This document shows, one piece after another, positions 35,367 through 35,460 of a DNA stretch of 64,000 bases. Numbering within the stretch: the first letter of the stretch is position 1; every line of letters begins with the position of its first letter. A model generated the notes under the pieces. It worked only from the letters and a program-made list of their open reading frames with translations, had not been told where the DNA came from and searched no databases. The DNA is from Candidatus Poribacteria bacterium (lineage in GTDB: Bacteria > Poribacteria > WGA-4E > WGA-3G): NCBI GenBank assembly GCA_028824685.1, contig JAPPCZ010000053.1, positions 21,554 to 85,553 of the forward strand. Direction: 5' to 3'. A program made the position numbers and the translations under genes.

Positions 35367-35460
35367 CCCCGCAAACCTATTGCGTATCTATTGGAAATAT
35401 ATTGTTCACGCCCCCCAATTCCTTTCAGATACCCGCTCTCCTTCAGATATACTGTTATAG
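35367..35460 (+). promoter_or_regulatory. CTATTG-triplet promoter module, copy iii
   Basis: CCCCGCAAACCTATTGCGTATCTATTGGAAATATATTGTTC ... TTCAGATACCCG...TTCAGATATACTGTTATAG, about 105 nt upstream of the 35567 ATG. Confidence 0.45.

Follow-up and report, generated by a model that had tools for sequence, protein, structure and literature searches.

A probable factor-controlled promoter module shared by the virion genes of a circular phage-like replicon in Poribacteria

Phage late activators are phage-encoded DNA-binding proteins that occupy a fixed upstream site and switch on the packaging, head and tail genes. The late promoters of phi29 (PA3/p4), P2/P4 (Ogr/Delta), Mu (C), P1 (Lpa) and the staphylococcal RinA system (upstream of terS) all have a good -10 and a poor or absent -35. 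The p4 protein of phi29 binds between -58 and -104 and Ogr of P2 binds at -55, and both act via the alpha subunit of the polymerase (PMC3152322). In a 64,000-nt stretch of contig JAPPCZ010000053.1 of Candidatus Poribacteria (positions 21,554 to 85,553; hereafter the window), we have analyzed a ~95-nt element, the module, that is like these promoters in having a -10-like box and no usable -35, and that carries three direct CTATTG repeats upstream. We think it probable that the module is a factor-controlled sigma70-type promoter and that the genes it serves are those for virion morphogenesis on a circular, phage-like replicon of ~155 kb that is specific to Poribacteria.

Alignment of the window sequence reveals the module at five sites, four on the minus strand and one (copy iii) on the plus strand. 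These are the five that a first-pass annotation of this DNA had located from the letters alone, and a profile built from 50 distinct Poribacteria copies returns exactly these five in the window at E<0.01 (nhmmer). The pattern CTATTG-N5-CTATTG-N5-CTATTG, with three mismatches or fewer, has six matches in the window (the five sites plus one register shift), compared to 0.02 expected from shuffled sequences. The conserved blocks are, in order, TTYCCGCAAAC, the triple repeat CTATTG-N5-CTATTG-N5-CTATTG(TTC), a variable stretch, and TC(A/G)GATATACT. The repeats have a strict period of 11 bp; the N6/N5 spacing originally given for them yields no match in the window and has to be replaced by N5/N5. 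The -10-like hexamer that had been noticed downstream is present in all five copies, reads TATACT in copies i, ii and iii, TATAAT in copy iv and TACACT in copy v, and starts exactly 43 nt past the third repeat in each. In agreement with the earlier remark that no -35 is recognisable, a consensus scan of copy iii finds as its best match TTCAGA (4/6), 18 nt from TATACT, which is a weak match for a sigma70-type promoter.

The same anatomy is found across the phylum. When one genome per species was searched with the degenerate triple repeat, 56 loci were obtained, ~46 in Poribacteria metagenome-assembled genomes (MAGs) of several species and the rest unrelated tandem repeats, and a metagenome scan added contigs from sponge metagenomes. 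A scan of viral contigs in IMG/VR gave chance or tandem-repeat matches only and no real module. In total, 75 profile matches represent ~67 distinct copies, nearly all from Poribacteria MAGs and sponge metagenome contigs, and the genes they face are largely virion genes. The hexamer (TATAAT, TATACT or TACACT) starts 42-43 nt past the third repeat in 62 of the 67 distinct copies, even though the spacer between repeats and box falls into unrelated sequence classes (for example CCAATTCCTTTCAGATACCCGC..., CGCACGCCACAAAAACTTCTGATC... and ACACCAAAGACAATTTGGAAACTGAC...). Such a fixed distance over divergent spacers is as expected for stereospecific recruitment of polymerase. When 24 diverse copies are aligned, the invariant columns are the repeats and the TA.A.T box alone, and no column in the -35 region is conserved across classes. 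Canonical TTGACA-17-TATAAT-type promoters occur in the same genomes, and the missing -35 is therefore a specific feature of the module.

How strongly the two blocks are maintained is illustrated by the related locus L065, whose downstream genes differ from those of the window at a synonymous divergence (dS) of 1.6-2.4 and whose 411-aa protein is only 50% identical. There the module keeps its place before a 105-aa gene, the 43-nt half that contains the repeats is identical at 39 of 43 positions, and the -10 block is intact, compared to 43-49% identity with the window in the spacer, leader and upstream flank. At the level of sequence, the repeats and the -10 thus form a clear two-block phylogenetic footprint. 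This retention of the repeats at saturated dS, together with the fixed spacing, the orientation bias and the leaderless geometry described below, bears out the initial idea of a promoter with phased upstream repeats that is common to dispersed genes.

Orientation was scored for 48 modules by comparing open reading frames (ORFs) of at least 100 aa within 450 nt in the forward and divergent directions. Such an ORF lies forward of 39 of the 48 modules, compared to 20 of 48 in the divergent direction, and positions are orthologous at dS >1.6, so the random orientation and placement expected of one more interspersed repeat are not what we see. A repeat of this kind, similar to a miniature inverted-repeat transposable element (MITE) or to repetitive extragenic palindromes (REPs), would have no regulatory role and would owe its association with genes to a preference for intergenic insertion. 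It draws some support from the many dispersed repeat families in the window, from the high identity of copies within one genome (82-85%, spacer included; I3 and I7), from a ~580-nt multicopy element in two MAGs that contains the module, and from a 13-nt inverted repeat that brackets copy iii. In addition, one spacer type may serve several genes of a genome, and from genome to genome the types move from one gene position to another, which suggests that the module is copied or converted between sites. The 13-nt pair is built of the common CTGAYAAC motif, and copies i and ii have no flanking inverted repeats; we rejected identification as a MITE because the terminal inverted repeats are inconsistent. 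The orientation toward genes, the orthologous positions with conservation confined to repeats and -10, the leaderless ATG geometry, and the occurrence of the REP families of the window in both orientations, unlike the module, make an interspersed repeat without function very improbable. A structured non-coding RNA or riboswitch was rejected, as RNAalifold predicts 0 consensus pairs on the 24 diverse copies, the single-sequence z-score is -1.15, and a search of the window against Rfam returns one tRNA and no family at the module.

The genes behind the modules also speak for a promoter of virion genes. Copy i (5679..5783, minus strand; repeats within 5743-5770; nhmmer E 1.3e-25; ortholog in L002) has its TATACT at 5694-5699 and a predicted start at ~5687, and would drive the gene of a 459-aa portal-like head protein (4149..5528, minus strand; PHROG 3753 portal, 2e-15; ratio of nonsynonymous to synonymous divergence (dN/dS) 0.075 vs L002) whose counterpart in L100, a 95.6-kb scaffold, is the N-terminal part of a portal-like protein of 763 aa. 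Copy ii (30899..30995, minus strand; repeats within 30956-30983; E 1.8e-23) has orthologous copies in L033, L039, L065 and L070. With TATACT at 30907-30912 and a predicted start at ~30900, it heads a three-gene string (28141..30824, minus strand) encoding proteins of 107 aa (30501-30824), 411 aa (28653-29888) and 122 aa (28141-28509), a family that is limited to this lineage (dN/dS 0.09-0.25). Among 5.8 billion proteins, only 11 clusters are homologous to the 411-aa protein, whose predicted structure is poor (predicted local distance difference test score (pLDDT) 42). Copy iii (35364..35458, plus strand; repeats at 35377-35382, 35388-35393 and 35399-35404; E 2.7e-23; orthologs in L050 and L032) has TATACT at 35448-35453 and a predicted start at ~35460. 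It would drive the gene of a 179-aa virion-associated protein, possibly a decoration or scaffold protein (35567..36106, plus strand; dN/dS 0.23), whose ortholog in L100 is placed between the protease and the major head gene. The gene identities first proposed hold for the most part, that of the portal included; the 179-aa protein has only a weak virion-structural match (PHROG 4588, 5e-4).

The two remaining copies are diverged. Copy iv (8385..8487, minus strand; repeats within 8447-8474; E 2.9e-15) has the TATAAT at 8398-8403 that had been singled out earlier, and the ATG at 8391 indeed follows after 6 nt (GTCCGT), a leaderless geometry. The gene that begins there encodes an acidic 157-aa protein (7918..8391, minus strand; dN/dS 0.16 vs L002) that is homologous both to a TerS-like protein (220 aa in L100), over the C-terminal part of the latter, and to the N-terminal region of 641-673-aa TerS-TerL fusions in other genomes. 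Copy v (52982..53070, minus strand; TACACT at 52987-52992; E 1.7e-10) is an orphan with REP-like repeats and no gene to drive behind it; in L040 its diverged ortholog drives TerL, a gene that the window lacks. The LamG-domain gene beyond copy v (51593-52393) has its own promoter, TTGACA-17-TATGCT at 52594-52622 (minus strand), and so does not need copy v. The first-pass statement that every copy faces a gene is accordingly correct for copies i-iv and fails for copy v. A sixth copy, 5.7 kb past the right end of the window, drives a tape-measure-like gene.

Across the relatives, the impression that phage-structural genes lie downstream is confirmed, as TerS-like and TerL proteins, portal, protease, major capsid protein (MCP), tail tube and tape-measure-like proteins were all identified behind modules. 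The TerL match is strong (PHROG 1e-18; 30% identity over 92% of the TerL of Thermobifida phage P1312, E 1e-56), the major head protein (4e-15), head protease (2e-8) and tail tube (Pfam Phage_tube_2, 5e-10) are recognized by profile, and the tape-measure-like proteins (743-997 aa) are named from N-terminal sequence alone. Further module-driven genes encode a 1436-aa protein, a holin-like membrane protein and a glycosyltransferase, and the lineage-restricted ones comprise the 107/411/122-aa string, a 170-aa protein and the 179-aa protein. Every gene tested has a dN/dS of 0.07-0.25, which indicates working genes under purifying selection and not prophage debris.

From these features we propose the following mechanism. 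The TATAAT or TATACT box would serve as the -10, with no usable -35, and transcription would begin ~7 nt past the box. With the -10 placed at -12 to -7, the repeats would span ~-83 to -56, with centers at ~-58, -69 and -80 on one helical face, and would be bound by a sequence-specific protein that brings in RNA polymerase from an upstream position in a class I-type manner, as phi29 p4 or P2 Ogr does. The inferred position nearly coincides with the p4 and Ogr sites, and positive control is what this geometry suggests. Unlike the inverted repeats bound by Ogr and Lpa, the module has three direct 11-bp repeats, and we found no sequence similarity to the sites or activators of the late systems named above. 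In repeat layout a parallel is provided by the pho and tor boxes of OmpR/PhoB/TorR-type regulators, which are short direct repeats with a 10-11-bp period on one helical face, before promoters that lack a -35. We take the layout of the module unit, CTATTGGATAT, to resemble that of CTGTCATAWAW and CTGTTCATAT. The pho boxes replace the -35, however, whereas the module repeats lie 20 bp further upstream and are odd in number, and no response regulator was found near modules.

The two classes of box would give rise to different transcripts. TATAAT-N6-8-ATG occurs in at least 12 copies, a geometry that suggests leaderless mRNAs; in this class transcription would start at the A of the ATG and yield leaderless TerS-like and TerS-TerL mRNAs. 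In the TATACT class the start would lie 75-420 nt before the gene and produce leaders, often with REP hairpins.

Neighborhood comparison for a cognate DNA-binding protein, the existence of which the first-pass annotation had anticipated, yields a candidate: a 93-aa tandem ribbon-helix-helix (RHH) protein encoded at 7360..7641 (plus strand). Two stretches of the one chain match Pfam RHH_1 (27.6 bits, with a cut-off of 20.5), and its model (pLDDT 75) contains two helix-helix units. The best half-length fold matches, to CopG, ParG, CopA_SO and AmrZ, are not statistically significant, the domain being short, and the RHH assignment therefore rests on Pfam. The family comprises 52 homolog clusters, and the few with a source name are from Poribacteria. 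In every context examined (window, L002, L055, L090, L098/L099 and L100), the RHH gene lies within ~2 kb of a module: 214 nt from the portal module and divergent to it in L002, 1.9 kb away in L098/L099, and 79 nt away and divergent in L100, where L098/L099 and L100 are contexts retrieved via the RHH protein and not via the module. In the window, a Transposase_31 (YhgA-like) gene at 5925-7004 (minus strand), inserted relative to JAPPIG010000028.1 (L002), parts the RHH gene from the portal module, which are otherwise adjacent and divergent. On the basis of gene neighborhood we regard the 93-aa protein as the most likely cognate factor and a better candidate than the sigma-like gene next to copy v.

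That sigma-like gene, which encodes a region-4 protein of 217-230 aa (53177-53869), had been put forward as a possible regulator in the first-pass annotation. If a sigma-like factor specific to the element or lineage were to read the promoter, the repeats would be an enhancer or recognition element. The protein matches Sigma70_r4 (7e-13) and phage sigma-factor PHROGs (3e-10), its gene lies directly upstream of copy v, and its family, like the module, is restricted to Poribacteria. The family is Poribacteria-wide and is found also in core chromosomal contexts, however; none of four homolog contexts (one housekeeping chromosomal, two beside STAS partner-switching genes) has a module within 10 kb, the gene does not adjoin the orthologous copy v in L040, and the -10 has the plain TATAAT form that suits the primary sigma. 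We rejected this gene as the regulator for want of conserved linkage to modules, and consider a dedicated sigma factor of any such kind improbable. A 598-aa ECF-type (extracytoplasmic function) sigma factor with a long C-terminal extension (32853-34649, plus strand), directly upstream of copy iii, has homologs in module loci L044, L052 and L012 (25-51% identity), and was set aside because its linkage to modules is inconsistent.

RHH regulators of mobile elements offer a precedent for the candidate. In the omega protein of pSM19035 and ArtA of pSK41, a small protein on arrays of short repeats coordinates several promoters of one replicon (PMC9499535, PMC2777438). Omega, ArtA and the Arc and Mnt proteins of P22, which belong in the same group, repress from sites that overlap promoters, use 7-bp heptads or inverted half-sites, and have single dimerizing RHH domains. 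The putative DNA-binding protein described here differs in carrying two RHH repeats in one 93-aa chain. The phage late systems differ from the module, for their part, in that the candidate factor here joins two RHH repeats in a single chain, in that almost all morphogenesis genes are served by separate copies of the promoter, and in that activation is here deduced from the geometry.

Several observations weigh against an activated promoter dedicated to virion genes. Nine of the 48 scored modules have no long ORF behind them, and in a further two Poribacteria MAGs (Plut_88891 and jk18x9bins.65) the module stands at the head of the ~580-nt multicopy non-coding element (L003, L010 with two copies, L021, L035, L036, L044 and L056) instead of a virion gene. 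This element, which lacks a conserved long ORF, contains a canonical TTGACA-17-TATAAT promoter besides the module; it may represent a small-RNA gene or a mobile unit. A better match to the sigma70 consensus (10/12), CTGACA-17-GATAAT, is located immediately before the 179-aa gene, and that gene may thus have a second promoter. The link between RHH gene and module comes from six contexts, and in the window the nearest modules are 1.6 kb and 0.7 kb away. RHH proteins are more often repressors than activators, and in many TATACT-class copies a fourth CTATT(G) motif overlaps the box (TATACTATTG). This fourth motif may be an operator, which would fit repression or looping.

These last points lead to a different view of the same promoter, in which the repeats are an operator and a repressor, such as the RHH protein, silences the virion genes until induction, binding in the TATACT class also to the CTATTG that overlaps the -10. 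About 20 of the 33 TATACT/TACACT-class copies read TATACTATT(G), which places the fourth motif approximately five helical turns from the third repeat, and the RHH gene of L100 is divergent from its module in the typical layout of an autoregulated switch. Arc, Mnt, CopG and omega, moreover, are classic repressors on short tandem repeats (for the omega heptads, see PMC9499535). The three invariant repeats, on the other hand, would lie at -56 to -83, outside the core footprint of the polymerase, their distance to the -10 is fixed within 1 bp, which repression does not require, the TATAAT classes have no fourth motif, and there is no canonical -35 to make the promoter active unaided. Repression through the repeats and the fourth motif is therefore in our view unlikely, although it deserves to be taken seriously alongside recruitment of polymerase by an upstream-bound activator.

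The modules of the window belong to one replicon. Proteins encoded in the window map to ENA scaffold_151 (140,932 bp), position 1 of which corresponds to window position 35,064 and the other end of which lies at ~49-50.5 kb of the window, inside a tandemly repeated TPR gene (49796-51217; twelve 102-nt tandem units, several 99% identical) at which the short-read scaffold stops. The scaffold runs outward from both points at ~100% identity, and because the window bridges both of its ends, a circle of ~155 kb is the only geometry possible. The 14 kb lacking in the scaffold carry copy iii and repeat-rich WD40 genes, and ~79 kb of the ~155-kb replicon were read in this analysis. In relatives the assembly gives circular contigs of 143, 148 and 170 kb, and the largest of these recurs as part of a 4.78-Mb chromosome, so the element occurs both free and integrated. 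P1 likewise is a plasmid-like prophage with many dispersed late promoters. The dispersed regulon suggested at the outset is real insofar as scattered genes share the module, but it does not extend over the host chromosome and is instead the morphogenesis set of this single replicon.

The replicon carries a small ParA with a ParG-like RHH protein and a winged helix-turn-helix (wHTH) Rep-like protein, either of which could in principle use the repeats as centromere- or iteron-like sites for partition or replication, with no role in transcription. The omega arrays of pSM19035 lie upstream of several promoters, where they are also operators. Omega uses such arrays as centromere sites and needs at least four contiguous repeats, compared to the two or three at each module (PMC9499535). 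The ParA and Antitox_RHH/ParG-like pair is found ~0.8 kb from the ortholog of copy ii (L033, L065 and L070), and the wHTH protein, which weakly matches replication initiators, has a gene that is driven by a module in L016 and L048. That nearest parA gene is divergent and lies at only one of the sites, however, and the copies are spread over at least 65 kb (window and L095) without clustering by parA or rep. As a centromere or origin would need neither a -10 fixed at 42-43 nt nor an orientation toward genes, we attach hardly any probability to such a function.

Comparison of L100 with the window lineage illustrates what the module may have made possible. In L100 one module precedes one operon, TerS(220)-TerL(480)-portal(763)-protease(428)-175aa-MCP(463), and a second module heads the next operon. 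In the window lineage the same head genes are 2-20 kb apart with one module each, and between them lie genes for WD40, TPR and secreted proteins as well as transposases and REP-like repeats. We envisage that an ancestral single head operon was broken into single-gene units amid cargo genes and repeats, and that each unit kept or gained its own module, so that one factor, most likely the 93-aa tandem RHH protein at 7360-7641, would still switch on the whole set together.

A comparison with the gene transfer agent (GTA) of Rhodobacter capsulatus, RcGTA, and its activator GafA is instructive, as there too phage-derived head, tail and packaging genes under purifying selection occupy several loci under one dedicated regulator. 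Most RcGTA genes lie in one 15-kb chromosomal operon, whereas the genes described here are on a separate 140-170-kb replicon, also integrated, with ParA and Rep-like genes, and the element is known from gene content and selection alone. It is possible, and we put this forward tentatively, that the replicon is not an ordinary temperate phage but a particle-making system (GTA-like or phage-plasmid-like) that sponge-symbiotic Poribacteria have domesticated and pass on vertically, its morphogenesis operon broken into at least ten single-gene cassettes amid eukaryote-like repeat-protein cargo and linked in function only by copies of one promoter via a tandem RHH activator. The existence of free and integrated forms accords no less well with a temperate phage or phage-plasmid than with a GTA.

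Several other features of the window and its relatives were recorded. Two GTAG-headed families of REP-like hairpins are present, REP1 (25 copies; GTCGGGT(T/G)TCG..ACCCGACCTAC) and REP2 (18 copies; GTAGGAGCGA..TCGCGAC), with examples at 5634-5670, 30858-30891, 52942-52975 and 8501-8530. They often begin 15-30 nt past the module -10, a position that falls within the predicted 5' leader. Only the window and L070, the closest of the relatives examined, have them in large numbers; L065 and L098 have few, and the four other loci scanned have none. A Y1_Tnp gene (IS200-/RAYT-like tyrosine transposase; ~55761-56237, plus strand) is a possible mobilizer of the REPs, of which more than 40 copies are on the same replicon. 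Strong structure is found in the predicted leaders: in that of copy i (5523-5688, minus strand) two inverted REP1 copies form a hairpin of -68.5 kcal/mol (z -8.2), and in that of copy iii (35459-35572, plus strand) the 5' end pairs with CUGACAACUGA repeats just before the ribosome-binding site (z -3.2). These leader structures may stabilize the mRNA or control translation. Arrays of CTGA(Y)AAC or its complement (35340-35352, 35462-35474 and 35520-35550) flank modules in many loci and precede ribosome-binding sites, and in L100 (~9690-9790) eight tandem 11-12-bp units, GTTTATTCACG, lie in the leader between the module -10 and the TerS gene.

Further rearrangements are visible among the cargo genes. 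Inverted repeats of 404 nt (37164-37567 and 47567-47970, 89% complementary), with a further pair at 36817-36914 and 48172-48269, bracket ~10 kb with paralogous WD40 and other genes, which is possibly an invertible or recombining segment. A 1786-bp tandem duplication (11806-15130, 88-93% identical) contains paralogous pairs of 154-aa and 264-aa genes, and the 255-264-aa family has further paralogs at 9417-10184 and 60947-61711. A fusion of a DNA methylase (N6_N4_Mtase) with an HNH endonuclease is encoded at 62718-63998 (minus strand); a counterpart with 98% protein identity in JAPPIG010000082.1 (L024) has a TATAAT-class module and a TerS-TerL fusion ~4 kb away.

Poribacteria are uncultured, and to our knowledge nothing is known of their promoters or mobile elements; a literature search for Poribacteria together with gene transfer agents, prophages, terminase or megaplasmids found nothing relevant. 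For this phylum the module provides a precise cis-element together with a short list of candidates for the trans-acting factor. By sequence alone it marks the full virion gene set of a 140-170-kb circular replicon that occurs free and integrated in sponge symbionts, including lineage-restricted genes that are otherwise unannotated, such as the 107/411/122-aa string. While an activator-type phage late promoter is of a known kind, what is distinctive here is the fragmentation into one promoter per gene, the uncultured host phylum, and the candidate single-chain RHH regulator. If the tandem RHH protein is indeed the activator, it would be a type of regulator not known for phage late genes. The contrast between L100, with one module for one head operon, and the window lineage, with a module for each gene and kilobases between them, is an unusually clear case of a phage operon that is fragmented yet presumably still co-regulated, and it bears on how phage-derived particle systems are domesticated.

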